The notes: a model not told the origin generated them from the letters alone. A stretch of 32,000 nucleotides of DNA from Candidatus Methanoperedens sp. (GCA_027460535.1 JAPZAR010000010.1:1-32000), one strand, 5' to 3'. Counted from the stretch's first letter, positions 2,640 to 26,741 are shown. A program made the numbers and translations.

Positions 2640-4742
2640 GTGACTATTGATATAATTATCGCAGAAAAGAATAATGATTTTATTTTTTATTCAAAAGACT
2701 CATTTAAAGATGCATTCAAGCTTGTATCCTCTTATCCGGAAGATTTGAAGAGTCAGATTGACCTGGAAGTTCTCGATGACCCAAAGGAAATGATCGAATG
2801 GAATAAACTCTTTGATTTTGCTAGCCCTGAGGAGACGCAATTGCTCATAAATAGTGAGGTTCACTATAACGTATTTGGTGAAGGGACAAGATACTGGCTG
2901 ATCAAGACAGCGCCGAAGACCCTTGATTCGGAAGAGCGTGAATATGAAAAAATCTTGCGGAAGGGCAGGAATGGCGGATGGGCACCAACTCTGTACGATC
3001 TAGTTTATACCAATTCCAATACCAAAAACGTAAACTATCATGCTGTTCAATTTGTCGAGACTTATACAAATGGTCTCAATTTTATCCATCTGACCGATCT
3101 CCATCTCGCTCAGCGTAACGATGAAATTCTGGGAGAGGTACTGAAAGAATGCAGGAAAGGTGTCAGGAGCAGGAAAGAGATCGAAGAGAAGTATATCAAC
3201 TTCAACGACAACTTCAGGAAATTCATTCACGTAGCTAATGAGCTGGCAGAGAGGGGAGAACTGGATTTTGTAATGATAACAGGAGATATAGTAGATTTTG
3301 CGGGTCATGGCTGGGAGGATGAAATCAGCCAATCGGAAAACAATTGGAAAATATTTATCGAAATGGTAACAGGACTTGAAATCAACAAAAGTTTCCGGTT
3401 GCGCAGCGGTGATAAAGAGCCTGACATGTTCAATCGTGGAATAAAGGTTGCAGTATTTACATCAACTGGCAACCATGACTGGCGTTTGCATCCGTATAGC
3501 CTGCTGCATTATGTCCCAGGGAGGTCGGGCGCATGTGAAAATTTTGGTCTCAGGGAAACTGAGGCTGAGAATTTCAATTACAAATCCTTCGATTCTTCTG
3601 AATACCCCTTGGATGAACGCAAGAATTTATCCGACGAATTGACAAAGGAGTCCTTAAAGAGGTTGAACTTAGATGCACTGGACGAAAAATGGTCAATCAA
3701 CTCCGTTCGCGTATTGGAAGGAAGTTGGCTTAGAGGTCTTTTGAGCCCATTGGGCATTACTGGATTGATGGGTTTGGGAGGAGCAGTTGGAAGATTTTTC
3801 TCATTCGGCGCGGCTCTGATCGGGCTGGCAACACCTGTTGCAGTAAAGTGGTTTGCTGAATTTCACATAAGAAAGTGGATGGATTTTTTGATTGATAACC
3901 CTCTTCATGCCGAAGTTAAGGCAATGCATTATTATTTCACGAATATAAATCCCTATTTTGATTATGCATTCAGCATCGGGGATAACCACTTTATTCTGAT
4001 GGATACAGGCGCGGATGTAGTGACAATCAGGGCCGGGGACCTTATGGATGGAAAGGAGTTAAAGGATTTGAAAAAAGTAAGTATCCAGGACAATTTGATT
4101 GGAATTTCACCCGATACAATGGCGTTCGATGATAGGGAAGCATACTATAATTGGTCACAGATCGTGTGGCTGGATAAAGTCCTTTCCACAGTAAGTCTTA
4201 AAAAGCAAAATGCAAAGAGCGGGAGAATAATTCTTGGTCTCCACTCCCCGCCTGTAAACAATGATCCAAAATGTAATATGGATATGTTGCTCGAAAGCAA
4301 AACACATGAGTACATCCCGGAAGACAAATGCAATCTTACCCATGGAACTATCAACCATTTTCTGAGCCAGTTCTTTTTCCTTTGTCAGGGTTTACGAGAG
4401 AATCCCGATAAAAAAAGCCAGAGAGTAAGCAACGATCTGGAGAAGGTTGATCTTGTTCTTTCGGGGCATGTTCATATGGACGCGGAATTCAGGCTTGGAG
4501 TAGGATACGATAAAGAAGTAAAGGAGAATAAAATCCGGATTTACCATGATAAATATAGCAGCAACCCCGGCCAGTTCGATGAAAAAAAGCCTTTTCTGGT
4601 GATAACTGCAGCTTGCGGCCCTCACCAGGGAAAAAATACCGGTACGCCTTACTGGAGGTCTATCAAGATAGACGAAAAAAATCGGATCAAATGCTTCAGA
4701 CAGGAAAATCTTGAAGATTGGTTATTGTCTCATCCGTCTTAA
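2640..4742 (+). CDS. Large calcineurin-like metallophosphoesterase with an unknown N-terminal domain and an internal hydrophobic hairpin
   Basis: All five metallophosphoesterase motifs are present in the canonical order: HLTDLH (DxH), ITGDIVD (GDxxD), GNHDW (GNHD/E), GLHSPP (H) and SGHVHMD (GHxH). An insert of about 250 aa between GNHD and the next His contains LLSPLGITGLMGLGGAVGRFFSFGAALIGLATPVAV. The GTG start is uncertain. Confidence 0.8.
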   Translation: MTIDIIIAEKNNDFIFYSKDSFKDAFKLVSSYPEDLKSQIDLEVLDDPKEMIEWNKLFDFASPEETQLLINSEVHYNVFGEGTRYWLIKTAPKTLDSEEREYEKILRKGRNGGWAPTLYDLVYTNSNTKNVNYHAVQFVETYTNGLNFIHLTDLHLAQRNDEILGEVLKECRKGVRSRKEIEEKYINFNDNFRKFIHVANELAERGELDFVMITGDIVDFAGHGWEDEISQSENNWKIFIEMVTGLEINKSFRLRSGDKEPDMFNRGIKVAVFTSTGNHDWRLHPYSLLHYVPGRSGACENFGLRETEAENFNYKSFDSSEYPLDERKNLSDELTKESLKRLNLDALDEKWSINSVRVLEGSWLRGLLSPLGITGLMGLGGAVGRFFSFGAALIGLATPVAVKWFAEFHIRKWMDFLIDNPLHAEVKAMHYYFTNINPYFDYAFSIGDNHFILMDTGADVVTIRAGDLMDGKELKDLKKVSIQDNLIGISPDTMAFDDREAYYNWSQIVWLDKVLSTVSLKKQNAKSGRIILGLHSPPVNNDPKCNMDMLLESKTHEYIPEDKCNLTHGTINHFLSQFFFLCQGLRENPDKKSQRVSNDLEKVDLVLSGHVHMDAEFRLGVGYDKEVKENKIRIYHDKYSSNPGQFDEKKPFLVITAACGPHQGKNTGTPYWRSIKIDEKNRIKCFRQENLEDWLLSHPS

Positions 4743-4996
4743 TCAGACCCGATGCAGTATATATGGCAAGGCTATCCTTCATAATGAAGCTCCGGGCATT
4801 TTTCAATACTCACACAATTCTGGATAGATCTATTTCAAACAACTCACTTTCGTAGCCGGGAGCGATTGCCATCCAGTCGAACCAAAATTGATAAATACTA
4901 AGAAAACAATTTTACATGATGAGGAGAAATGGGGTTTGTAAATTTATTTCTCTACATCTTATTCCACATCTTTATAATTGTATAAAAAGGAGGAAA

Positions 4997-5509
4997 ATGG
5001 AAACTTTGCCAGCAACCGGGACTGTTCGAGGTGTGTTTTTCAGTCTAGGAACTACCCCGGCCACGAATGATTCCAAGTTTGACTGCGCAGGGGCAGTTAT
5101 CGGCCTTTTCAACCAGGCAAAGAAGACGGCTCATATTGCCATATATTCCCTGACCGAGCCCGAGATTGTCAATGCAATGATTGCCGCCAATAAACGGGGT
5201 GTGAAGGTTGCGGTCTTGGCGGACGCAACGGAGAGCAAGAATGCGAATCAAGCTGCAATGATAAAAGCACTCACACAGGCAGGGATCGATGTTCGCCTCG
5301 CAGTTCGCCAGACGGCTTTGATGCACAATAAGATCGGCATCTTCGATGGGAAGACAATATGCACCGGTAGCTTCAACTGGACGACTAACGCAGAGAAGCA
5401 TAACGATGAAAATCTGCTGGTCGTGGATGGTGTGGATCTGGCAGCAGATTATGAAAAATACGTCTTCCAGCGGATTCTTCAAAACGAAACGCTGATAAGA
5501 GCAAAGTAA
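4997..5509 (+). CDS. Phospholipase D superfamily protein with a single HKD motif (Nuc-like endonuclease type)
   Basis: The HKD signature reads HNKIGIFDGKTICTGSFNWTTNAEKHNDEN. I prefer ATG at 4997 (METLPATG...) because AAGGAGG sits 5-11 nt upstream. The ORF-track start at 4916 adds 27 implausible residues. Confidence 0.85.
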   Translation: METLPATGTVRGVFFSLGTTPATNDSKFDCAGAVIGLFNQAKKTAHIAIYSLTEPEIVNAMIAANKRGVKVAVLADATESKNANQAAMIKALTQAGIDVRLAVRQTALMHNKIGIFDGKTICTGSFNWTTNAEKHNDENLLVVDGVDLAADYEKYVFQRILQNETLIRAK

Positions 5510-5552
5510 TAGAGCTTAAAAATTAAAAAGAAATTTAAAAGGAGTGAAATAT

Positions 5553-6350
5553 ATGCCAGAACAAAAGAAAGTTACAACAACAAAGAGTAGTGGAACGAAA
5601 AAATCCGGTTACGGGTGGGTGCCTGACTTACCCGATCATCGGGATTTTATGTATAGTGCAGTTCGAAAACCAGCCAAACTACCATCGTCCGTCGATCTGC
5701 GTCCCGGATGTTCCAAAGTCGAAGACCAGGGACAACTCGGCAGTTGTACAGGAAATGCCCTTGCGGGTGCACTGGAATTCCTGGAAATGAAGGACAAAGT
5801 TCCCTATATCGAATTGAGCAGACTGTTTATATACTACGATGAACGCGCCTTTGAACATACAGTAGCGTCGGATTCAGGCGCCCAGATCCGCGATGGGATA
5901 AAGACTCTTGCCAAAAAGGGAGTGTGTTCAGAAAATTGTTGGCCTTATGACATTTCGAAGTTCACTGTGAAGCCAAGCCCACCCTGTTACAAAGAGGCTG
6001 CAAGCCATAAAATTACATCATACCAGCGCATCCAGACAGTCGATGAAATGCGGGCCTGCCTTGCGGATGGATATCCATTTGTATTTGGCTTTTCAGTATA
6101 CGAAAGTTTTGAGTCCCAGCAAGTCGCCCAGACGGGCATAGTACCAATGCCTCAGTCTGGCGAGCAGCAGGTAGGTGGCCATGCTGTGGTGGGGGTGGGT
6201 TATAACGATTCCACGAAACGATTTATCGTACGCAACTCCTGGGGGGAAGATTGGGGCATGAAAGGCTACTTCACAATACCTTATGACTATCTTGGGAACA
6301 GGAATTTGTCTGACGATTTCTGGACGATCAGACGTGAGGCAGGATTTTAG
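5553..6350 (+). CDS. Papain-like cysteine peptidase (MEROPS family C1-like), with no signal peptide or long propeptide
   Basis: The catalytic signatures are QGQLGSCTGNALAG (Gln/Cys), GGHAVVGVGY (His) and RNSWGEDWGMKGYF (Asn-Ser-Trp). ATG at 5553 lies 8 nt after GGAG. The track start GTG at 5544 overlaps that Shine-Dalgarno sequence. Confidence 0.9.
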   Translation: MPEQKKVTTTKSSGTKKSGYGWVPDLPDHRDFMYSAVRKPAKLPSSVDLRPGCSKVEDQGQLGSCTGNALAGALEFLEMKDKVPYIELSRLFIYYDERAFEHTVASDSGAQIRDGIKTLAKKGVCSENCWPYDISKFTVKPSPPCYKEAASHKITSYQRIQTVDEMRACLADGYPFVFGFSVYESFESQQVAQTGIVPMPQSGEQQVGGHAVVGVGYNDSTKRFIVRNSWGEDWGMKGYFTIPYDYLGNRNLSDDFWTIRREAGF

Positions 6351-6361
6351 GTTCCACCCAA

Positions 6362-6670
6362 ATGGAAGTGCCAGCCAAGATTGAGCTTAAGGCCGGAGAA
6401 AAATATACATTCAGGCTAAAAGGACTGGGAGCAGCAGGATATAATTGGGAGTACTCGATTGAAGAAACAAAAAAGGTGGTTTCTGTATCATTGGAATTTG
6501 TAGATGACCAGAAAAAGGCTAAAAGAATATTGCCCCCTGGTTATAGCAAGGATGTGATGGTTACAGTTGAGGCTAGGGAATCAGGGCAGGCAACAATTCG
6601 CTTTGTGCAGCGTCGGTCATGGGAAAAGGTCCTTTCAAGAGAACATATTATTGAAATCAGCGTGAACTAA
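6362..6670 (+). CDS. Chagasin-like (I42-type) cysteine-peptidase inhibitor candidate
   Basis: The 102-aa beta-rich protein starts 11 nt after the C1 peptidase stop. Its layout matches the three chagasin loops. GLGAAGYNWEY aligns with NPTTGFAWYF, PPGYS with GAGG, and VQRRSWE with YMRPW. The loop motifs are diverged, so this call is only moderately secure. Confidence 0.6.
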   Translation: MEVPAKIELKAGEKYTFRLKGLGAAGYNWEYSIEETKKVVSVSLEFVDDQKKAKRILPPGYSKDVMVTVEARESGQATIRFVQRRSWEKVLSREHIIEISVN

Positions 6671-6925
6671 ACGAGCTTATCGTTGAACAGACACGCTGCA
6701 CATCTGTGTCCCGTGCGCGAGAAGCGAGTGGGATATGTTCCGCCAAGAAAAGAATGCTTTAATCTTTAGCCGAACATTCTAAAAAAAATTTGTCCTAACC
6801 GAAAGTTTAATACATGATGATGAATTAGTCTAAACTGGAAGGTGGCGAATTTCCAAAGCGCATAAGCCAAGAAGTTTTACCTGAAACATGAGTGGATAAG
6901 AAAGTTTTAGAGTGGAGGTAAGTCT

Positions 6926-8218
6926 ATGGTTAAAAAAAAAGTTATTGTAGAGATAAGGATACCGAAGGTACCAGAATCCAGATTAGCTGCATCAGCAATT
7001 GATCTGGTTTCTCAGCTTGACATACCTGGGTTTCAATTAGATAAAGATTCCAAACCAGTTCCTGTGAATCCGCCTGACTATCTTGCTGCGAGCTTCGCTG
7101 CCTCCAATGAAACCGTTATGCTTGTGCGGGGTGAGATAGAGGAGGGAAAGGAAAAAGAACTTGAGTCCAAACCAAATGTCATCAAGGTCTGGACTGATGC
7201 AAGAATAGAGCCTTCCTATGATTGTGATACGGACACATCAAAAGGGGACATTGACAGTGTTGCCAGATATTTGGGCGTGGATGAAATATGGGCAAAAGGG
7301 GTACGGGGAAAAGGCATCGTCATAGGGATATGCGATGATGGTGTCAATGCCCTGTCTTCTGATATCGTGGTTGACGGTTGGTCGCCCCCGAATTGTTCCC
7401 GCTATGGAGCAGAAGGCGGGCACGGCAACATGACAGCTACAGATGCAACAGGGATGTGCCCCGAAGCAAGAATTTATGATATTGGGGTTCTTAAGAACCC
7501 GCCTGGAAGCCTTCCTGATATCGGCGGTGCGATTTCCAATGCTATAGCCGGGTTCCAGTGGGCTATTGAGCGCCACAGGAAAGACGGCACCCCGCATATT
7601 CTTTCAAATAGCTGGAACTGTTACCAGGAGTCGTGGGCTCCCGATTATGCGAGGGATCCCAACCATCCCTTCACGAGAAAAGCCGTTGAGGCGATAAGGG
7701 AAGGAATAATAGTCTGCTTCAGTGCCGGGAATTGCGGCAAGAATTGCAAGGACAAAGATCCAAGGTGTGGTTCGGATGAAGGCCAAGGGCGTAGTATCTG
7801 GGGTGCGAATGGGCATCCGGAGGTTATAACAGTCGGCGCGGTGAATGTCAAGGGAGAGCTTGCAGGCTATTCAAGCCAGGGGCCTGCAGCCCTATCAAAT
7901 GAAAAACCCGACTTCTGCGGGATTACGCATTTTAAAGGATACAACGATCCCGATACCGGGACATCGGCAGCGACACCGATAGTGGCGGGAGTTATCGGTC
8001 TTCTAAAATGTGCCAAGCCCACGCTGACACATGCAGAGGCAAAAGCCGTATTGAGAAAAACAGCTAAAGATATCGCCGGAACGGGTTTTGATGCAGAGTC
8101 GGGATACGGGATAATCCAGGCGCGCGCGGCTTTCGAACTCATAAAAGGGCAACCCAAACCTGAGCCTAAACCAAAGCCAAAGCCCAAACCTAAACCAAAG
8201 CCGAAAAAGGTAAAATAG
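6926..8218 (+). CDS. Subtilisin-like serine peptidase (S8) with an N-terminal extension of about 125 aa and a C-terminal Lys-Pro repeat tail
   Basis: The catalytic residues appear in Asp-His-Ser order: GICDDGV (Asp), GGHGNMTAT (His), LSNSWN (oxyanion Asn) and GTSAATPIVAGV (Ser). There is a Cys-rich insert CFSAGNCGKNCKDKDPRCG. No hydrophobic signal sequence is present. Confidence 0.9.
   Translation: MVKKKVIVEIRIPKVPESRLAASAIDLVSQLDIPGFQLDKDSKPVPVNPPDYLAASFAASNETVMLVRGEIEEGKEKELESKPNVIKVWTDARIEPSYDCDTDTSKGDIDSVARYLGVDEIWAKGVRGKGIVIGICDDGVNALSSDIVVDGWSPPNCSRYGAEGGHGNMTATDATGMCPEARIYDIGVLKNPPGSLPDIGGAISNAIAGFQWAIERHRKDGTPHILSNSWNCYQESWAPDYARDPNHPFTRKAVEAIREGIIVCFSAGNCGKNCKDKDPRCGSDEGQGRSIWGANGHPEVITVGAVNVKGELAGYSSQGPAALSNEKPDFCGITHFKGYNDPDTGTSAATPIVAGVIGLLKCAKPTLTHAEAKAVLRKTAKDIAGTGFDAESGYGIIQARAAFELIKGQPKPEPKPKPKPKPKPKPKKVK
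8153..8206 (+). repeat. Coding dipeptide repeat (Pro-Lys/Pro-Glu, 9 units) at the S8 C-terminus
   Basis: The codons read CCN-AAR repeatedly: ccc aaa cct gag cct aaa cca aag cca aag ccc aaa cct aaa cca aag ccg aaa. They encode PKPEPKPKPKPKPKPKPK. The repeat is imperfect at the DNA level. Confidence 0.8.
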
Positions 8219-8332
8219 GAAAGGAATGACGAAGCTCAATTTTGACCAAAGGTGTCTATGAAAATTACAGGTTTACGCTTCTAAAAGGCAGTTTACAGTA
8301 ACTGACCTTTTGGATATAAAAGGGAGGAAAAT

Positions 8333-9433
8333 ATGTTGAAAAAGAGGTTGGAAATGAGATTTCCTAAAAATGTGGGAACTACGGAAAGAATGGGAACAAC
8401 TGTTCGAAGCATTATCCCTCCGCATATGCTTAAGGAGCTCGCAAAGAGGGGAGATGATAAGCAGCGCGAAATGGCGTTAAGGCATTTGATGATATCCGAA
8501 AAGATACGCGGTCGGCGCGAAGCGTTCGGTGAATTCTATGTCGCAACGCCTGTGAGCGGCGTGAAGTGCCTGAATGTATATGACGCCAAGGAAGGACAGA
8601 CACTTCCAGGGGATTCGATCCAGGATCCGGGTAACGGCAGCGACCCGGCCGCAAAAGAGGCTTATGATGGCGCAGAAGCCACGTATAATATGTACAATGA
8701 TGTATACGGGAGGAACTCTATCGATGACAAGGGCATGTGCATAAACTCAAGCGTGCATTACGAGCAGGATTACGACAACGCTTTCTGGGACGGGCGGCAG
8801 ATGGTCTACGGCGATGGCGACGGGAAATTATTCAATCGGTTTACTATATCCATAGACGTGATAGGGCACGAATTGACACATGGCGTTACCGAAAATGAGG
8901 CAGGGCTTGTTTATTCATACCAGCCTGGCGCGCTGAATGAATCAATATCTGACGTCTTCGGTTCTCTCGTGAAACAGCGCTCGCTCAACCAAACAGCTGA
9001 TGAGGCAGACTGGCTTATCGGTGAAGGTCTTTTTACCTCAAGCGTAAATGGCAAAGCTCTGCGCTCGATGAAAGATCCGGGAACCGCCTATGATGACCCG
9101 AAGCTCGGCAAGGACCCGCAACCCGGGAATATGAAGAATTTCAAGAAGTTGCCTCAATCAGAAGATAACGGAGGAGTGCACATAAACTCAGGGATACCGA
9201 ACCGTGCATTCTGCATGACCGCAATCGAGATCGGTGGAAATGCTTGGGAAGAGGCAGGGAAGATATGGTATATCACAATGAGGGACAGACTCAGGCCCCA
9301 ATCCAATTTCCAGGATGCTGCGAACAAGACCTTCCAGGTGGCGGGGGTTGTGTTCGGCGCAGGGAGCAAAGAGCAGGGAGCTGTGAAAAAAGGCTGGGCA
9401 GCGGTCGGGATCAATGTGAGTGCAAAGAAATAG
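8333..9433 (+). CDS. Thermolysin-family (M4) zinc metallopeptidase, protealysin-like subtype
   Basis: The motifs are VIGHELTHGV (HExxH), GALNESISDVFG (third zinc ligand Glu) and GGVHINSGIPNRAF. It has a short N-terminal propeptide with IIPPHMLKELA and no signal peptide, as in protealysin-like proteases. A strong GGGAGG lies 7 nt before the ATG. Confidence 0.9.
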   Translation: MLKKRLEMRFPKNVGTTERMGTTVRSIIPPHMLKELAKRGDDKQREMALRHLMISEKIRGRREAFGEFYVATPVSGVKCLNVYDAKEGQTLPGDSIQDPGNGSDPAAKEAYDGAEATYNMYNDVYGRNSIDDKGMCINSSVHYEQDYDNAFWDGRQMVYGDGDGKLFNRFTISIDVIGHELTHGVTENEAGLVYSYQPGALNESISDVFGSLVKQRSLNQTADEADWLIGEGLFTSSVNGKALRSMKDPGTAYDDPKLGKDPQPGNMKNFKKLPQSEDNGGVHINSGIPNRAFCMTAIEIGGNAWEEAGKIWYITMRDRLRPQSNFQDAANKTFQVAGVVFGAGSKEQGAVKKGWAAVGINVSAKK

Positions 9434-9452
9434 TAATTAAAGGATAAGGATT

Positions 9453-9761
9453 GTGGATGACAGTATGTTGATTCATCTGGAACGAAGTGGCGGCTTTGCG
9501 GGTATACGGACAGAGGTTACGCTGGATACCGAATCGCTCCCTGCTGAGGAAGCCAAAAAGCTGCTGGAATTGCTGGAATCAGCCGATTTTTTCAAGATGC
9601 CGGCAAAGTTCGCGCCCCCGAAACGAGGTGCGGATTACTTCCAGTACAGCCTTACGGCTAAAATTGAAGGTAAAGAGCATACAGTCGAGTTGAGTGAACC
9701 GTCTGTCCCAGAGAATCTCAAGCCGCTTCTTCGATCCCTGATGAAGTATGCAAAAAAGTGA
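9453..9761 (+). CDS. Emfourin-like proteinaceous inhibitor of protealysin-like M4 peptidases
   Basis: The gene starts 19 nt after the M4 stop. It has the hallmark N-terminal ERSGGFAGI motif, then ...D...LP.EEA..L..L....FF..P, then GADYFQY.L....G..HTV. The start is either GTG at 9453 or in-frame ATG at 9465 (MLIHLERSGG). Confidence 0.75.
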   Translation: MDDSMLIHLERSGGFAGIRTEVTLDTESLPAEEAKKLLELLESADFFKMPAKFAPPKRGADYFQYSLTAKIEGKEHTVELSEPSVPENLKPLLRSLMKYAKK

Positions 9762-10718: not shown

Positions 10719-12566
10719 TTAATTATGCCCCGGGCGCAAAGTTACAATGGAAGGATTTTCCATTATCCTGTATCCTTCATCCATGTCTTTTCCTATTTTG
10801 ACATCTCCCTTCCGCCCGACTGTGGCGGTAAAAAGATAATCCTCCCCGCTATACACATCCACAGTTTGACCCGATAATTCTGCCACATTCAGAATCACAA
10901 ATTTTTTTGTTCTCTCCACTCTTGGGATGAAACTTGAGATTCCGCTCTTCCTTTCAACTGTCTTTTTACCTTTTTCCGTGCGTTCTCTCTCGCGGATCTC
11001 CAGATGAATACCCAGCCTTTTCTCGATCTGATCAATATTCTTTCCACCCTTCCCTATAACACCGGGGATATCTTCCTCATCCATATATACTGTAGCGGAA
11101 GAATCGGAATCAACTTTTACGTCCACGGAGCCGCGGGTGAACTTCTGAATCTCTTTCCTCATGGCATCTGCGGCAAGTGTCCAGGTGCCTGGCCTTTTTT
11201 CTTTAATTTCGCTTACAGGCATCACTACGACCTGTTCCCCGTAGGTGTATATTTCATATTCAACACTCCATGTCTCGAAATCTGCCACTGTTATCACAGG
11301 CCTGGCCAGATCCTGTTCCACCATCCCGCTCGGAACTTTCACCGTGAATTCAATATCGTATACCTTTGCAACTTCCCCCTTTTCAATAAAAATAACGGTA
11401 TCCACGACCTGGGGTATGATCCCGAGTTCAACGCGCCCTATCAGTCTCTGGATCGCATCCACTGCTCTCGTGGCATGTACCACGCCTATCATTCCTACGC
11501 CTGCCATCCTCATATCTGCGAAAACATGGAAATCCTTTGTTTTCCTGACTTCATCATATATCGTATAATCTGGTCTAACGAGTAGCATAATATCAGCTGT
11601 TTTTTCCATGTCGCGCTCTAATGGTGCGTACTGGGTTATGGCGTCAGAAACCTGCAGATCGCGCGGTGATTCCATAGTTTTCACGATAAAATCCTGCTTG
11701 TGAAGGAATTCTGCAAGACTGGCAGCAAAAGTGGATTTTCCTGCGCCGGGTGGGCCGGCGACAAGGATTCCCCTCTGCTTTTCCACAATTCTATCCTTAA
11801 GTTCCTTCCCGAGCCTGTAATCATCAAGGCGCACCACTGCAATCGGTCTTACTGCCGTTATTTCCATTCCGTCTGAAAACGGAGGCTGGGCCACAGCTAT
11901 GCGCATTGAACCTATCTGTAACACTGTTGCACCGGAATAATCTATCTCCAGAAACGAGTCAGGGTCACGCTTCGTCCTCTCTATTAATTCTCTGGTTATT
12001 GCATGAAGCTCTGTTTCCGTGCAAACCTCATTCCGGATTTTCATGAGTTTTTGTTTTCCTACCGACCCTCTTTTTGCCATTGGAGGGACATTGACCTTTA
12101 GATGGATTGAAAGAGTATCTTCAGTGAAAAACCTGTTTATGCTGAGTTCTTTTAACTCTTCCATTCTTGGATACAGATATTCCACATTCAATCCTTTTGC
12201 ACGGGCGACCTCTGCCTGCACTTTATCGCTGGTAATGAAAATCGCATTGTTTTCCACAGCTACGGCGCGAATAATGGCATCGATCTCACCGGAAGAAGCA
12301 AGTTTTATTTGCTCAAGAGATGGCCTTTTCCCGGTGAATTTAAGCTTTATCTCATCTTTTTTTGCCATCTCGCTGAGTTCTTTTAACTCGTCAAGCCCCT
12401 TAAAACCAATTTCTTTACCCTTGTTAGCCTGCGCTTCCAGCTCCGCTATCAACGCTTCAGCAATGATCACGGTCGCAGGTTTATATTCGCCTGCCTTTAA
12501 TTTTGAGGTAATCCTCCCATCAATGATAACGCTTGTGTCAGGAACAATACAAGACTCATCTGTCAT
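10719..12566 (-). CDS. PIN domain - PilT-like ATPase - KH domain protein (conserved archaeal COG1855-type)
   Basis: The domains are an N-terminal PIN (VPDTSVIIDGRI...FITSD), Walker A GPPGAGKST, and a C-terminal KH-like segment (VIGKGGKNIDQIEKRLGIHLEI). ATG at 12566 (MTDESCIVPDTS) is preferred over the track GTG at 12581. Confidence 0.85.
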   Translation of the reverse strand: MTDESCIVPDTSVIIDGRITSKLKAGEYKPATVIIAEALIAELEAQANKGKEIGFKGLDELKELSEMAKKDEIKLKFTGKRPSLEQIKLASSGEIDAIIRAVAVENNAIFITSDKVQAEVARAKGLNVEYLYPRMEELKELSINRFFTEDTLSIHLKVNVPPMAKRGSVGKQKLMKIRNEVCTETELHAITRELIERTKRDPDSFLEIDYSGATVLQIGSMRIAVAQPPFSDGMEITAVRPIAVVRLDDYRLGKELKDRIVEKQRGILVAGPPGAGKSTFAASLAEFLHKQDFIVKTMESPRDLQVSDAITQYAPLERDMEKTADIMLLVRPDYTIYDEVRKTKDFHVFADMRMAGVGMIGVVHATRAVDAIQRLIGRVELGIIPQVVDTVIFIEKGEVAKVYDIEFTVKVPSGMVEQDLARPVITVADFETWSVEYEIYTYGEQVVVMPVSEIKEKRPGTWTLAADAMRKEIQKFTRGSVDVKVDSDSSATVYMDEEDIPGVIGKGGKNIDQIEKRLGIHLEIRERERTEKGKKTVERKSGISSFIPRVERTKKFVILNVAELSGQTVDVYSGEDYLFTATVGRKGDVKIGKDMDEGYRIMENPSIVTLRPGHN

Positions 12567-12675
12567 AACAAATAGATACACATCATAAAGCTAAAAATGT
12601 TCTGGCTTCGACCTAAAATTTCCCGCCTATAAGTACATCATAAAAGATAAGTAGTTTGATTGCGATTTAAAGCCC

Positions 12676-15487: not shown

Positions 15488-16087
15488 TTATACCACAGGT
15501 TTTGAACGGGCTATCCGTATCATATTACCGTTGATTGCACCATATTTGTGCCTGAGTTCTGAATATTTATATTCCAAGAATGCACTTAATTCAGGATGTG
15601 CTGTAGCTTTTATATATTCATCAGTAAAGATATTAATAATATTGTCATATTTTTTTCGCGAACTGCCGTGGGCGTAATTCTTACCTGAAAATCGTCTAAC
15701 ATCCCCATTAAATAATGGCGAGATATGATATAATTCATGCAACACGGTCGCAAGTTTGTTCTTATGATCTTTATGATTGAGGAAACGGGGTAAGTGGAAA
15801 TATACTATATATAGAATGTCTTTTCCATTAATGTTTACTTCAGGCGTGATGTATTCAATCCCGCGATGTACTCTGGTTTTTGACCCGCCTTCATATCTCA
15901 TGGGCCGCATTTTTGCGACAACACCATTCCTGCTTCCATTTGAGGGAGATATCGCAATAAGAATATTATTCAGCTGAATATGACTGAAAGAAGGGTGGGT
16001 TTTAGCAATATCCTCCACAAGAAGGGTCATGTTGCCAGTAAAGTCAAAACCCTCTGGATTATTTTTGTCTGAATTTCCTGGCCGCAT
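15488..16087 (-). CDS. HExxH-motif putative metallopeptidase/metallohydrolase
   Basis: The 199-aa product contains LATVLHELYHISPLFNGDVRRF, an HExxH zinc-binding motif. Its 5' end overlaps the last 29 nt of pgk in another frame. An alternative start at ATG 16030 (MTLLVEDI) would remove the overlap. Confidence 0.5.
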   Translation of the reverse strand: MRPGNSDKNNPEGFDFTGNMTLLVEDIAKTHPSFSHIQLNNILIAISPSNGSRNGVVAKMRPMRYEGGSKTRVHRGIEYITPEVNINGKDILYIVYFHLPRFLNHKDHKNKLATVLHELYHISPLFNGDVRRFSGKNYAHGSSRKKYDNIINIFTDEYIKATAHPELSAFLEYKYSELRHKYGAINGNMIRIARSKPVV

Positions 16088-19543: not shown

Positions 19544-20023
19544 CTAATACTTTTCATTCTGTTCAAAATCGAATAAGGATTTAGCCTTCAATAGCCCTAC
19601 GACCTCCTCCGTAGTATAAGCATCCGCAACACCCTGCTGTTTGAAATGCTTATCGTTCGACCATACCGCGCAATTTAACTGCAATGCCAGAGCCAGAAAA
19701 GGAGTATCTTTTTCATCTATGCTTTTCATTACTTCATAGGCGTAATTCATTCTATTGGAATATAATTCAGCAGGTATTACATGAACAGATTCGAGTATAA
19801 ACTTCAAAGCGTACTCAAAGCTTTGTCTTTGTAAAATTTTCTTTCTTTTAGGATAAATATGTTTTTTATAATATTCTAATTCTTTTAATCCATCTTCAGG
19901 ATAATATACGTCCAAAAATTCGGATTTCAATAATTTTGCCGTAAAGGTTTTGTCTTTTAGCAGAGCCGACAATAAAATATTGGTATCAACTACAAGCCGT
20001 ATTTTTTCTTTGTTTCTTTCCAT
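19544..20023 (-). CDS. PIN-domain toxin (VapC-like ribonuclease)
   Basis: The 159-aa product has the acidic PIN residues in the usual context: LVVDTNILLSAL, DEKDTPFLALAL and VWSNDKHF. Confidence 0.8.
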   Translation of the reverse strand: MERNKEKIRLVVDTNILLSALLKDKTFTAKLLKSEFLDVYYPEDGLKELEYYKKHIYPKRKKILQRQSFEYALKFILESVHVIPAELYSNRMNYAYEVMKSIDEKDTPFLALALQLNCAVWSNDKHFKQQGVADAYTTEEVVGLLKAKSLFDFEQNEKY

Positions 20024-20199
20024 GCATCTTCTCTTGCTATTTCCAGTTCTTCCATATCTTTCTCACTCAATGAAAGCTCTTCTATGCATTTCTCAAACAA
20101 AACCCATTTTATTTCCTCCTCTTTTACCAGCTCATCGATCTTTCTTTTTAGATTGGATACTGGAATTTCTTTCGGAACTTGTATGATTATTTCGCTCAT
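19990..20199 (-). CDS. Putative cognate antitoxin of the PIN toxin
   Basis: The 69-aa acidic, helical protein lies immediately upstream of the PIN gene and overlaps it by 34 nt. A TTTATATA box sits in the roughly 60 nt upstream (minus strand). The family was not recognised. Confidence 0.5.
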   Translation of the reverse strand: MSEIIIQVPKEIPVSNLKRKIDELVKEEEIKWVLFEKCIEELSLSEKDMEELEIAREDAWKETKKKYGL

Positions 20200-20263
20200 C
20201 TTAATTACCTGATGTTCTTACAGTGTTATATAAACTTGGAAGATGAGATAAACATTCTAACAT

Positions 20264-20401
20264 TCATCCCAAACCATCAGTTTCTCCCCCCATCTCCCCC
20301 GCCAGCCGCGCCGCCTCCTCCACGCACGCCTCAAGCTCGCCGCGCTCGATGCAGGGCGCAAGTTTCAACAGGAATTCCTCGGTTTTGTTATTTTCAGGCA
20401 T
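20264..20401 (-). pseudogene. Truncated duplicate of the N-terminus of the 18228-19529 TPR gene (45-codon remnant ORF)
   Basis: The manual minus-strand translation is MPENNKTEEFLLKLAPCIERGELEACVEEAARLAGEMGGETDGLG*. The full gene starts MDNKAEEFLKKLAPCIERGELEACVEEAARVAREMGIGAEDL. Similarity stops at about codon 37. Confidence 0.6.
20289..20401. repeat. Direct repeat copy B, partner of 19423-19529
   Basis: The same 54-nt identical core is present, with near-identical flanks. Together the two copies bracket the PIN/antitoxin cassette. Confidence 0.85.
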
Positions 20402-20635
20402 AATTTTTAAATTCGTTTTTGTTCTGATTTATTATCCAAAAATTTAAACAGTATTTTTTATAATCTTGTTCGAAGAAAGTTTTGGATTTTGTGCGTGCCA
20501 TGTTACAATTTTAGTTTTTATTTTTTCCAAAGCTCTTTTTTAATCCTTTCCAGATTTTTCAAGTCCCGCTCTCTAATATCTAATTTTTCTTTTGTCTCTT
20601 CGATAATCTCACGTTTTTTCTGATTTTTGATATTT

Positions 20636-20995
20636 TTATCCAATGGCTGCACCATCCTTTGCAGAGTAGAGTAATTTACCTTTAAGAATTTCATTCACGA
20701 ATGGATTCCCTTTTCTTCTTATCTCTTAAAATTCTTGTTCCGTATAGCACAGCGGTTCTATCGGCAGCTCTGTCATTTCAAGAATTTTATCAGTGCGGTC
20801 TAAAAAGCGTTCTCTGAAATCACCTATGATAGCAAGGTCGATATCGCTCCCTTTATTAAAGTCATTGCGCGCCACTGAACCGAACATATAGACCTTTTTA
20901 ATATCGATATTAGAAGCAAGTTTCTCAACAAACCCATCTATCTTGCCAAGAAGTTCCTTACTTCTACTAATATCGATTCTGCATATTTTATGCAT
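20636..20995 (-). pseudogene. Minimal nucleotidyltransferase (MNT, HEPN-MNT antitoxin type) interrupted by an in-frame TAA
   Basis: The MNT signature is FGSVARNDFNKGSDIDLAII. The ORF stops at TAA 20726-20728 after ...CYTEQEF. The same frame continues EIRRKGNPFVNEILKGKLLYSAKDGAAIG* to 20636, which is the normal MNT C-terminus. Confidence 0.7.
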
Positions 20996-21122
20996 TTGTC
21001 CGCATCCTCTCTCGTATAGTATTCATAGGCGAGCCTGATGGAAGCGCATCCGGGTAGCGTGGGGGGATATAATGGTTGTCAAGCTCCCAGCCAGCTTCGC
21101 TATTTAAGAAAGAAAATAAGGC
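20938..21122 (-). pseudogene. HEPN-domain remnant (C-terminal half only, one frameshift)
   Basis: The minus-strand translation starts right after the tbp stop: ALFSFLNSEAGWELDNHYIPPRYPDALPSGSP. A 1-nt frame slip occurs near 21028. The sequence then reads YEYYTREDADKCIKYAESILVEVRNFLAR*, matching the usual HEPN C-terminal pattern (YIP.RYPDALP....Y..E.A...I..A..I...V). There is no start codon and the N-terminal half is missing. Confidence 0.6.
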
Positions 21123-22465: not shown

Positions 22466-22885
22466 ATGGATATAAATAATATCACACTTCGAGCAATTGT
22501 TCAGGCAACAGAAAGTGAAGACAGGGTATGTACTGCTCTGTCGCTTTTTCTTTTTGACAGCGAGATAGAAAGGATTAGAACGGAAGGGCATTTCGGGAAT
22601 CCGATCACCATCCTCCAAGCGCGCATAACAGGAAAAAAATGCAGCCAATTTATTGAACTTCTAAAATCAAAGCTGCCAGAAAGTGATTTAGAAAAATTGA
22701 AAAATGAACGCTGTGAAAGGATAGACGAGGATTGTTGCTTTCATATCAGATTTCATAAACAGGCTGCATATAATGGGAAAGTACAATTGGCTACAACAAC
22801 AGATACTATAGCGGCTGAGATCAAGATCAAGGTGTATCCTGCTAAACGGGAGAAAGCCCTGGCTGTTTCCGAAACGATTTTTTAG
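22466..22885 (+). CDS. Predicted RNA-binding protein of the DUF54/PF01877-like family, which commonly neighbours rpl15e in archaea
   Basis: The 139-aa product starts 8 nt after rpl15e. Its N-terminal pattern is I.LRAIV.ATESEDRV.TAL..F. The call rests on recalled gene context and pattern only. Confidence 0.55.
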   Translation: MDINNITLRAIVQATESEDRVCTALSLFLFDSEIERIRTEGHFGNPITILQARITGKKCSQFIELLKSKLPESDLEKLKNERCERIDEDCCFHIRFHKQAAYNGKVQLATTTDTIAAEIKIKVYPAKREKALAVSETIF

Positions 22886-25782: not shown

Positions 25783-26322
25783 ATGAAACTTATTGCATTT
25801 GTCGGCATGCCGGCTTCCGGAAAATCGGAAGCGGCAGCTGTAGCAAGGCGCCTATCCATCCCTGTAGTCAGCATGGGCGATATTGTAAGACAGGAGGCTG
25901 CAAAGAGCGGACTGTCTCCCACAGACGAGAACCTTGGCGGAACGGGGACAAAGTTGCGCAGGGAAGAAGGAATGGATGCAATTGCAAAACGCTGTGTTCC
26001 TGTAATACGCTCGCATGACTCTCCTGTCGTAGTGGTTGATGGCACACGGAATATTGAGGAAATTAATTATTTCAAAAAGGAATTTGGGAGCGATTTTCTC
26101 CTTATAGCGATCCAGGCACCGTTCGAACTGCGGTTCGAAAGGGTAAAAACCCGTGTGCGTTCTGACGATATGTGCAGCGTTGAGGAATTAAGAAAACGCG
26201 ATGAGCGCGAAAAGGGCTGGGGACTGGACAAGGCGATCGAAATAGCGGAAGTAAGTGTCAATAATACCGCATCCCTTCAAAAATTCCGCAAAGAAATAGA
26301 AAAAAAGCTCCGGATCTTATGA
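25783..26322 (+). CDS. P-loop nucleotide kinase-like protein (UPF0200 / dephospho-CoA-kinase-like family)
   Basis: The P-loop is GMPASGKS at residues 8-15, and the adenylate-kinase-like size is 179 aa. Its stop overlaps the next start in ATGA. Confidence 0.65.
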   Translation: MKLIAFVGMPASGKSEAAAVARRLSIPVVSMGDIVRQEAAKSGLSPTDENLGGTGTKLRREEGMDAIAKRCVPVIRSHDSPVVVVDGTRNIEEINYFKKEFGSDFLLIAIQAPFELRFERVKTRVRSDDMCSVEELRKRDEREKGWGLDKAIEIAEVSVNNTASLQKFRKEIEKKLRIL

Positions 26323-26741
26323 ACGTAATCGTAAGGATCTCTGCATTAGTCTATCCAACTGAGATTGAAGAAAAAGTTAGTACCGCCATAACAAATTTAT
26401 TTCCTGTGATATTACAGCGGCAGGATTTTGGGACGCCGCGTCTTTACGGCGAGGGGGACATTGAAAGCCTAAGACGGCTGCATCGCCTTTTAAGAGAGGA
26501 GCAGGTGCTCGATACGGCGCGTCACATTCTTCTTTCGGGCATTGAAGGGAATGCCACGCAATTTAGATTGAATAAACAGGTCGCTTTCGTGGGAAAATTG
26601 AATTTTCCTTCCGGAGAGGAGAGCCTGGGTTCAATATATGTTGAGTTATGTGCAGATAATGAAAAAGACCTTATGAAAATTATCGACTGGCTTGCGCCTG
26701 AGACAGTTGAAGGTGAACCAGTTGTGGAGATTGAACTTTAA
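26319..26741 (+). CDS. DUF54/PF01877-like predicted RNA-binding protein (UPF0201-type)
   Basis: The 140-aa product has an N-terminal pattern V.I.A.V.PTE.EEKV..AI.NLF, like 22466-22885. It sits in the conserved position after the UPF0200 kinase. Confidence 0.55.
   Translation: MNVIVRISALVYPTEIEEKVSTAITNLFPVILQRQDFGTPRLYGEGDIESLRRLHRLLREEQVLDTARHILLSGIEGNATQFRLNKQVAFVGKLNFPSGEESLGSIYVELCADNEKDLMKIIDWLAPETVEGEPVVEIEL

Follow-up and report, generated by a model that had tools for sequence, protein, structure and literature searches.

Protealysin-like M4 metallopeptidases with emfourin, and xylellain-type C1A cysteine peptidases with chagasin-family (I42) inhibitors, are already known as enzyme-inhibitor pairs. 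Protealysin accumulates intracellularly as a precursor, is activated after lysis and cleaves FtsZ and RecA; loss of emfourin leads to an earlier fall of optical density and is associated with less FtsZ (PMC9505478, PMC6778150). An effector/immunity logic was proposed by the authors for the protealysin-emfourin pair (PMC9505478), and protealysin-like proteases are defined by an RS↓VI-type processing site together with a PPL motif (PMC6778150). Short C1A peptidases of the xylellain type occur widely, stay inside the cell if leaderless, and were often transferred from bacteria to methanogens (PMC10380794). Here, both kinds of pair were found at one locus in a 32-kb stretch of DNA from Candidatus Methanoperedens sp. 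(GCA_027460535.1 JAPZAR010000010.1:1-32000, hereafter the window), the terminal part of a metagenome contig of 143 kb (ENA ERZ27247940). Seven genes in a row on the + strand at 2640-9761 (the island) encode a metallophosphoesterase (MPE), a PLD-family enzyme (PLD), a C1 peptidase, an I42 inhibitor, an S8 serine peptidase, an M4 metallopeptidase and an emfourin (Emf). The region resolves into a tandem of two three-gene cassettes that recur elsewhere, PLD-C1-I42 (cassette A) and S8-M4-Emf (cassette B), plus a loosely associated phosphoesterase. Neither recurrent cassette was found described in literature searches, nor was their shuffled co-localisation with non-homologous phosphoesterase and nuclease partners or the upstream element that they share.

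The protealysin-emfourin operon of Serratia proteamaculans resembles cassette B in its leaderless PPL-type M4 and in the emfourin gene directly downstream, whereas the Methanoperedens pair is archaeal, is preceded by a leaderless pro-subtilase S8 and forms a triad that is often located beside the C1-chagasin cassette, with an orphan emfourin lacking M4 in one relative (L054; related loci are designated in this manner). Xylella fastidiosa xylellain and chagasin share with cassette A a short leaderless C1 without I29 and an I42 directly downstream, but the Methanoperedens pair is the tail of a PLD-led three-gene unit with the element, from which PLD was lost in some lineages. The window PLD is like Nuc, NucT and Zucchini in its length of about 170 amino acids (aa) and its single HKD motif; Nuc is periplasmic, whereas the window PLD has no signal peptide, and it scored below the NCBIfam equivalog cut-offs. 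The S8 triad and the prodomain fold are shared with pro-subtilisin E and Tk-SP, to which the window S8 adds a (PK)n tail. By analogy, the locus may also be compared with effector-immunity and toxin-antitoxin pairs, in which a self-harmful enzyme lies beside a protein inhibitor and several pairs are clustered, although no delivery machinery or labile-antitoxin features were identified here and the inhibitors belong to classical peptidase-inhibitor families. Two megaplasmids offer anecdotal parallels: on Bacillus thuringiensis pBT62A (L060, NZ_CP044979.1, 217350-232627), leaderless trypsin-like, M14 and S8 (50% identical to the window S8) genes are adjacent, and about 5 kb from them there is a protealysin-type M4 that is 37% identical, propeptide region included; on a second B. 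thuringiensis plasmid an M4 gene stands beside a short C1. The pBT62A group is thus a bacterial cluster of peptidases of several classes, with two families in common with the window. The Sinorhizobium, Streptomyces and Deinococcus contexts were uninformative.

The first-pass annotation had presented the seven genes as one hydrolase island and had made linkage in related genomes its test; no conserved seven-gene island was found in relatives, but the components neighbour one another in at least six other Methanoperedens-type contexts, with their orders shuffled. The window order itself was present in independent assemblies (L001-L006), so it is not a chimera or an assembly artefact. Cassette A was found in three contexts, namely the window, L007 and L059, and in L059 (GCA_040961345.1, 2480-4720) the order element-PLD-C1-I42 lies between Proton_antipo_M and NADHdh genes, as if inserted into an Mrp/Mbh-like membrane-complex operon. 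Cassette B follows dapA-dapB in L039, L041 and L044, the last with a different, 426-aa metallophosphoesterase next to it, and precedes an A-type ATP synthase operon in Ca. M. nitratireducens Mnv1 (L057); altogether S8-M4-Emf occurred in three flanking contexts. Between L057 and the window, S8 is 83% identical, M4 is only 42% identical and emfourin is recognisable by Pfam alone, and the S8-M4 adjacency was thus kept despite divergence or replacement. Each Methanoperedens-type S8 (81-85% identical) for which enough flank was inspected adjoins another member of the set. Hybrid arrangements were observed as PLD-S8-C1 in L038, where C1 is frameshifted, and as S8-C1-I42-Emf in L054, where M4 is missing and the genes for a PF04185 phosphoesterase (5.6e-76) and an SNase-like nuclease (1.4e-6) follow. 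In L054 (1777-5960 of ENA ERZ25039554 contig_126761) about 4.2 kb of inserted DNA interrupts C1, with the same junction in L055. The insertion carries three ORFs (377, 419 and 403 aa), none with a Pfam family, and may be an unclassified archaeal mobile element.

By comparison of upstream regions, a conserved element, AACCAAAATTnATAAATACTnAnAAAACAAnTTTACATGATGAGGA, was located at 4880-4925, 72 nt ahead of the PLD start. Its versions span 26-46 nt and stand ahead of whichever gene leads the cassette, that is, PLD in L007, L059 and L038, S8 in L040 and (at 85% over 39 nt) in L039/L041, and C1 in L047-49 and L050-51. The short form, ACCRAAAGTTTWATACATKATRATGA, at 6798-6823 ahead of the window S8 aligns to both ends of the long form, and an exact-pattern match lies before the S8 of M. 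nitratireducens (L057/58). Elsewhere, no occurrence was found in 767 kb of DNA searched on both strands, and shuffled windows gave zero matches. When the window was compared with L059 and L050, the element was the sole upstream DNA that aligned, at 87-91% versus 72-78% for coding DNA. At L050:9892-10000 a ribosome-binding site and ATG identical to those of the L038 PLD start remain with no PLD gene after them, which indicates that PLD was deleted and element-C1-I42 left. No pairs were found by RNAalifold downstream of the element, and with no conserved RNA structure there a promoter/operator is the most economical reading. The element is presumed to have this function, and it is compatible with co-regulation of both cassettes. 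Scans for sigma-70 promoters and terminators gave matches at chance level only.

The intergenic gaps across the seven genes are, in order, 173, 34, 11, 255, 114 and 19 nt, which favours several transcription units over one operon. Two compact units are apparent, PLD-C1-I42 (gaps of 34-47 and 11 nt) and S8-M4-Emf (114 and 19-31 nt), separated by 255 nt. The seven co-directional genes of the first-pass annotation were recovered at the same positions by ORF calling, all seven families, including both inhibitors, scored above the gathering score in a Pfam scan (Table 1), and the catalytic motifs that it had regarded as intact were borne out by alignment to homologues (MPE, S8) or to PDB entries (C1, M4, PLD). 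No match above curated cut-offs was obtained with NCBIfam, and none inside the island with Rfam.

For cassette A, the maximal ORF of PLD extends over 4916-5509; the likely true start is ATG 4997, giving 170 aa, because AGGAGG precedes it and the 170-aa form was called in L007 and L059. One intact HxK(x)4D(x)6GSxN motif, HNKIGIFDGKTICTGSFN, was aligned to Nuc (HNK...D...GSFN; PDB 1BYR, 1.3e-15), with MitoPLD/Zucchini and NucT also matched. The NCBIfam match was NucT-like and below cut-off, and the best matches mix nucleases (Nuc/NucT) with the cardiolipin hydrolase MitoPLD. The PLD gene appears to be co-transcribed with the peptidase-inhibitor pair. The C1 peptidase aligned to xylellain (PDB 3OIS, 5.4e-72) over the DQGxxGSC, GGHAV and RNSWG blocks that hold Cys, His and Asn, and the N-terminal KKSGYG-PD-DxRDF segment of xylellain is conserved in it. 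Pfam detected Peptidase_C1 alone, and the protein has neither an I29 propeptide nor a leader. More than 8000 homologues were retrieved, and the best 120 are all at least 71% identical with bacteria among them, which indicates horizontal transfer and agrees with the bacteria-to-methanogen transfer described for C1A peptidases (PMC10380794). The I42 gene, 11 nt after C1, scored 47.9 bits against a cut-off of 27.2, and I42 follows C1 in L007, L047-51, L054 and L059 as well. Chagasin carries the inhibitory loops NPTTG, GxGG and RPW; GAAGYNW, PPGYS and RRSW occupy plausible inhibitory-loop positions in the window protein, and the sole PDB sequence similarity was a weak one to amoebiasin (E 0.15). 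Among C1 homologues, a 416-aa protein (P0184, 76% identical) is fused to a TIR_2 domain, which hints that the C1 family may be recruitable into conflict-type architectures. Beside C1 peptidase genes in two different genomes, leaderless Glyco_hydro_1-like proteins that are 41% identical to each other are encoded (L007:9636-12566, 976 aa; L008:2493-4847, 784 aa).

For cassette B, D137, H166, N269 and S347 of S8 are invariant across 40 homologues, and the protein consists of a prodomain (about aa 1-95), a catalytic domain and a C-terminal (PK)n tail. An AlphaFold2 model (pLDDT 86) showed a beta-alpha-beta-beta-alpha-beta N-terminal domain at aa 3-90, and the top Foldseek matches were unautoprocessed pro-subtilisin E (3WHI, 1e-18) and ProN-Tk-SP (3AFG), over 426-448 columns. 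The docking geometry of the prodomain is uncertain in the model (rmsd about 22 A), and Pfam Inhibitor_I9 was not detected in this region. In Methanosarcina (metagenome-assembled genome GCA_049697415.1) the orthologous S8 is 57% identical and is directly followed by a 92-aa ORF (L052:11471-11749), a free-standing copy of the S8 prodomain that is 44% identical to window S8 residues 1-96 and has no Pfam match; it may act in trans as an I9-like inhibitor or chaperone. The fold model and this free-standing copy support a subtilisin-type (I9-type) prodomain as the predicted latency device, in line with the earlier suggestion that the N-terminal extension of S8 keeps the enzyme in check. An intracellular subtilisin (ISP) of the Bacillus type, which is likewise leaderless, was ruled out, as the window S8 has a full, folded prodomain of about 95 aa instead of a short extension. 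The basic Pro-Lys tail of S8, PKPEPKPKPKPKPKPKPKPKKVK, lies at 8150-8215, is encoded by a 12-nt tandem repeat (DNA repeat at 8153-8200), is shorter in close relatives (NPPKPKPKPK) and absent in more distant ones, and could serve as a spacer or in polyanion binding.

Residues 23-360 of the 366-aa M4 peptidase were aligned with the precursor of protealysin (2VQX, 2.1e-107), a stretch that takes in HELTH as well as the Glu further downstream (GALNES). Its TVRS↓IIPPHML aligned to TARS↓VIPPYML of protealysin, so that both the PPL motif and the processing site RS↓(V/I)I are present, and PLN_propep scored 27.5 bits, just short of the 28.1 cut-off. The features of protealysin-like proteases, namely a short PPL propeptide, the catalytic domains and no leader by the heuristic described below, were all present. 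Emfourin scored 86.6 bits against a cut-off of 27 and lies 19-31 nt after M4; its maximal ORF starts from GTG 9453, and ATG 9465 gives 98 aa. Emfourin also follows M4 in L044 and L057.

The MPE has a beta-sandwich at its N-terminus and a calcineurin-like catalytic domain; a hydrophobic segment is inserted at about aa 350-420. D153, H155, D216, N278, H279, H535, H610 and H612 are invariant in 51 homologues, and the calcineurin-like motif set (DxH, GD, GNH(D/E), H, GHxH) is complete. No PDB sequence match was obtained; in the AlphaFold2 model (pLDDT 77, pTM 0.83), in which the insert was poorly predicted, the best fold matches were SMPDL3B and purple acid phosphatases, with low TM-scores. The membrane hairpin of the first-pass annotation held at the level of the family, as the most hydrophobic 19-mer falls inside the same insert in 51/51 homologues and reaches at least 1.6 in 42 of them, but in the window copy it is weak (1.50). 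Hydropathy therefore supports a membrane-associated hairpin as a predicted family feature, weakly developed here. A 64%-identical MPE precedes PLD-C1-I42 in L007 too. Homologues of 57% identity or less have heterogeneous neighbours (secreted S8-DUF2341, TIR-pentapeptide, ABC transporters), which leaves the MPE only loosely tied to the cassettes, and homologues below about 50% identity are mostly bacterial. Near the MPE gene in L008, C1, C14 (caspase-like) and C11 (clostripain-like) peptidase genes form a cluster.

Leaders were evaluated by a heuristic, the highest 12-residue Kyte-Doolittle mean within the first 56 aa. All island proteins gave values of 1.42 or less (M4, 0.48), whereas five secreted or membrane control proteins with obvious leaders from related loci, including cytochromes, a redoxin and a large S8, gave 2.76-3.44. 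ORFs were taken as maximal, so no upstream leader was missed. The substitute hydrolases of related loci, including the PF04185 and SNase proteins of L054, were also leaderless. By this measure, the seven proteins lack N-terminal leaders, as had been noticed at first reading.

From these observations we infer co-regulation, latency in vivo and the biological role. The best explanation, to which a little less than an even chance is given, is that the cassettes are cytoplasmic, latency-gated and probably co-regulated hydrolase modules, that is, stored degradative capacity for autolysis/abortive infection or antagonism. Recycling, which was put forward at first reading together with a cargo set released by lysis, would be a further candidate role. 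In this explanation, two self-contained cassettes, each with the element before it, would have been juxtaposed specifically in Methanoperedenaceae with the MPE next door, and all products would be made in the cytoplasm without export leaders. The C1 peptidase would be kept latent by equimolar chagasin and by the conserved xylellain-like N-terminal segment, S8 by the I9-type prodomain in cis, and M4 by the PPL propeptide and emfourin. The cassettes would store latent proteolytic and phosphodiester-cleaving activity, to be released only upon removal of the inhibitors or prodomains or upon loss of cell integrity. Either the cell's own contents would then be digested (regulated autolysis or abortive infection), or neighbours would be, with the inhibitors acting as immunity that protects kin.

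Several results weigh against this explanation, and part of them would equally be expected from a coincidental pile-up, in a variable region, of independent horizontally acquired modules with no joint function or regulation, which is the main rival though rather unlikely. Each pair is an autonomous, described unit (PMC9505478, PMC10380794), C1 is at least 71% identical to bacterial proteins, and gaps of 114-255 nt imply separate transcripts. In two Methanoperedens genomes C1-I42 was found on its own, surrounded by housekeeping genes; the Methanosarcina S8 was unlinked to other modules except for the prodomain ORF. The gene for a housekeeping PIN-ATPase-KH protein (10719-12581, - strand, 620 aa, PIN - T2SSE-type ATPase - KH) was used as an anchor for the locus in 27 Methanoperedenaceae species representatives (anchor 73-82% identical), and in none of these sister species did an island gene occur within 10 kb of the PIN-ATPase/TtuA locus. 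All that this comparison shows is that the island is no fixed part of the locus: TtuA adjoins the PIN-ATPase gene in only 11/27, and PGK, TPR and KaiC in 0/27, so that the neighbours of this gene are almost unconserved, rearrangement was extensive and backbone synteny is poor in the family. Against poor synteny at similar divergence, the kept adjacency within cassettes stands out. A pile-up is also at odds with the adjacency of components of both cassettes in at least three gene orders (window, L038 and L054), with S8-M4-Emf remaining intact in three flanking contexts even where M4 is 42% identical, with a cassette-specific element before PLD, C1 or S8, whichever comes first, and with the recurrence of non-homologous phosphoesterases and nucleases beside the cassettes. 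Of the remaining adverse points, C1 or I42 is frameshifted in some relatives and C1 is split by the insertion, from which the genes may be dispensable; MPE homologues of 57% identity or less have unrelated neighbours, and at L010 a 66%-identical MPE has beside it only a patatin gene in divergent orientation and a gene with an FRG domain. The absence of leaders was judged by a hydrophobicity heuristic, and neither a sensor nor a trigger or delivery component could be identified. Descent of all cassettes from one ancestral cluster that bore the promoter, with deletions afterwards, could equally explain the element, with no need for present-day co-regulation; both co-regulation and common descent entail that the promoter was retained under selection.

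Two other alternatives concern the site and purpose of action. Enzymes for extracellular nitrogen and phosphorus scavenging, exported non-classically or within vesicles, with inhibitors that only guard the cytoplasm in transit, are regarded as improbable. The classical prodomain of S8 resembles that of secreted subtilases, proteases, nucleases and phosphoesterases make a typical scavenging set whose theme recurs in L054 (PF04185, SNase), and some bacterial protealysin-like proteases were detected extracellularly despite having no signal peptide. However, the island and substitute enzymes are leaderless while the controls have obvious leaders, the inhibitors, one encoded per peptidase, are leaderless too, and the MPE hairpin would, if there is no leader, leave the two catalytic halves facing the cytoplasm. 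The most improbable of the alternatives is a dedicated system of an already described type for abortive infection against viruses or Borg elements, in which the peptidases, PLD and MPE would be the effectors. Its appeal lies in matches of PLD to DrmC-type PLD nucleases (4.3e-15) and of S8 to the PADLOC 'subtilase' model (6.8e-16), in the TIR fusion of P0184, in MPE relatives located beside TIR-pentapeptide, patatin, FRG, restriction-modification or toxin-antitoxin genes, and in the peptidase cluster of L008. Yet PADLOC 2.0 gave no system-level match and no match of any kind for C1, I42, M4, Emf or MPE, the cluster lacks a sensor NTPase, STAND, cyclase or anything comparable, housekeeping genes form its flanks, and presence on viral contigs was slight (no M4 relative and one distant C1 relative).

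Within the preferred explanation of latent cytoplasmic cassettes, a more specific and clearly unlikely version was considered, in which both cassettes would form a co-regulated 'latent digestion' regulon under one conserved operator and would be fired together as self-destruction or kin-protected antagonism. Triggers would be, for example, viruses, Borg elements or stress in biofilm aggregates, and the subtilase might act as the trigger by processing pro-M4 or by destroying the inhibitors.

Table 1. Positions of the island genes, the upstream elements and the preceding hydrolase gene in the window
Feature	Position	Strand	Remarks
Alpha/beta hydrolase, 219 aa	1767..2426	+	Pfam Hydrolase_4 5.5e-11
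Metallophosphoesterase (MPE), 700 aa	2640..4742	+	Pfam Metallophos 3.6e-8
Upstream element, long form AACCAAAATTGATAAATACTAAGAAAACAATTTTACATGATGAGGA	4880..4925	+	72 nt before PLD start codon
Single-HKD Nuc-like PLD, 170 aa, leads cassette A	4997..5509	+	Pfam PLDc_2 2.6e-30
Xylellain-type C1A peptidase, 265 aa	5553..6350 (maximal ORF from 5544)	+	Pfam Peptidase_C1 2.5e-20
Chagasin-family (I42) inhibitor	6362..6670	+	Pfam Inhibitor_I42 (PF09394) 1.7e-12
Upstream element, short form ACCGAAAGTTTAATACATGATGATGA	6798..6823	+	103 nt before S8 start codon
S8 pro-subtilase, 430 aa, leads cassette B	6926..8218	+	Pfam Peptidase_S8 4.4e-29
Protealysin-like M4 metallopeptidase, 366 aa	8333..9433	+	Pfam Peptidase_M4 2.9e-34, M4_C 2.2e-52
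Emfourin-family M4 inhibitor, 98 aa	9465..9761	+	Pfam Emfourin (PF20242) 1.6e-24

The alpha/beta hydrolase gene upstream of the island was correctly recognised at first reading. It is tightly paired with an AP_endonuc_2 gene at 996-1763 and was found beside the cassettes in no related locus examined, and its membership in the cluster is doubtful. The remaining window is ordinary chromosome, with mcrB/mcrD, PGK, eL15 with its Rfam leader, TBP, a PAN-like AAA ATPase, TtuA, two tRNAs and CcsA. No flanking repeats, integrase or transposase were found around the island; a tRNA-Gln gene lies 3 kb from it with two housekeeping genes between. Base composition gave no foreign mark (GC content 0.41-0.51 in the island versus 0.36-0.49 elsewhere in the window), and no secretion-system genes were found in the 32-kb window besides the PIN-ATPase-KH gene. 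A low-GC stretch (0.36-0.38) at 19544-21000 on the - strand holds small genes that are probably toxin-antitoxin modules, among them a PIN_2 toxin-like gene (19544-20023), which overlaps with a 69-aa ORF upstream of it (19990-20199), and an 89-aa ORF (20726-20995) with a GSxxRxxxxxxSDxD motif that was read as nucleotidyltransferase-like. A 199-aa ORF at 15488-16087 (- strand) matches PhageMetallopep weakly (9.5e-6) and shares 29 nt with the start of the PGK gene. Paralogous PF01877 'RNA_binding' genes are located within 4 kb of each other (22466-22885 and 26319-26741), one following eL15 and the other a putative kinase gene.

The physiological role of intracellular peptidase-inhibitor pairs is still debated, and here, in one archaeal family, such pairs are embedded in larger recurrent cassettes. 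These cassettes offer handles in the form of a candidate operator, a candidate protease cascade and natural variants (PLD-less, M4-less and with C1 disrupted by an insertion). If the two cassettes were fired together from one operator, they would represent a new type of module for cell death or conflict in archaea. If gated autolysis or antagonism is the true role, the cassettes would bear on cell death, biofilm turnover and conflict with viruses or Borg elements in the main nitrate- and metal-dependent methane oxidisers; if it is not, the locus would show horizontally acquired accessory modules travelling as promoter-bearing cassettes in archaeal chromosomes.

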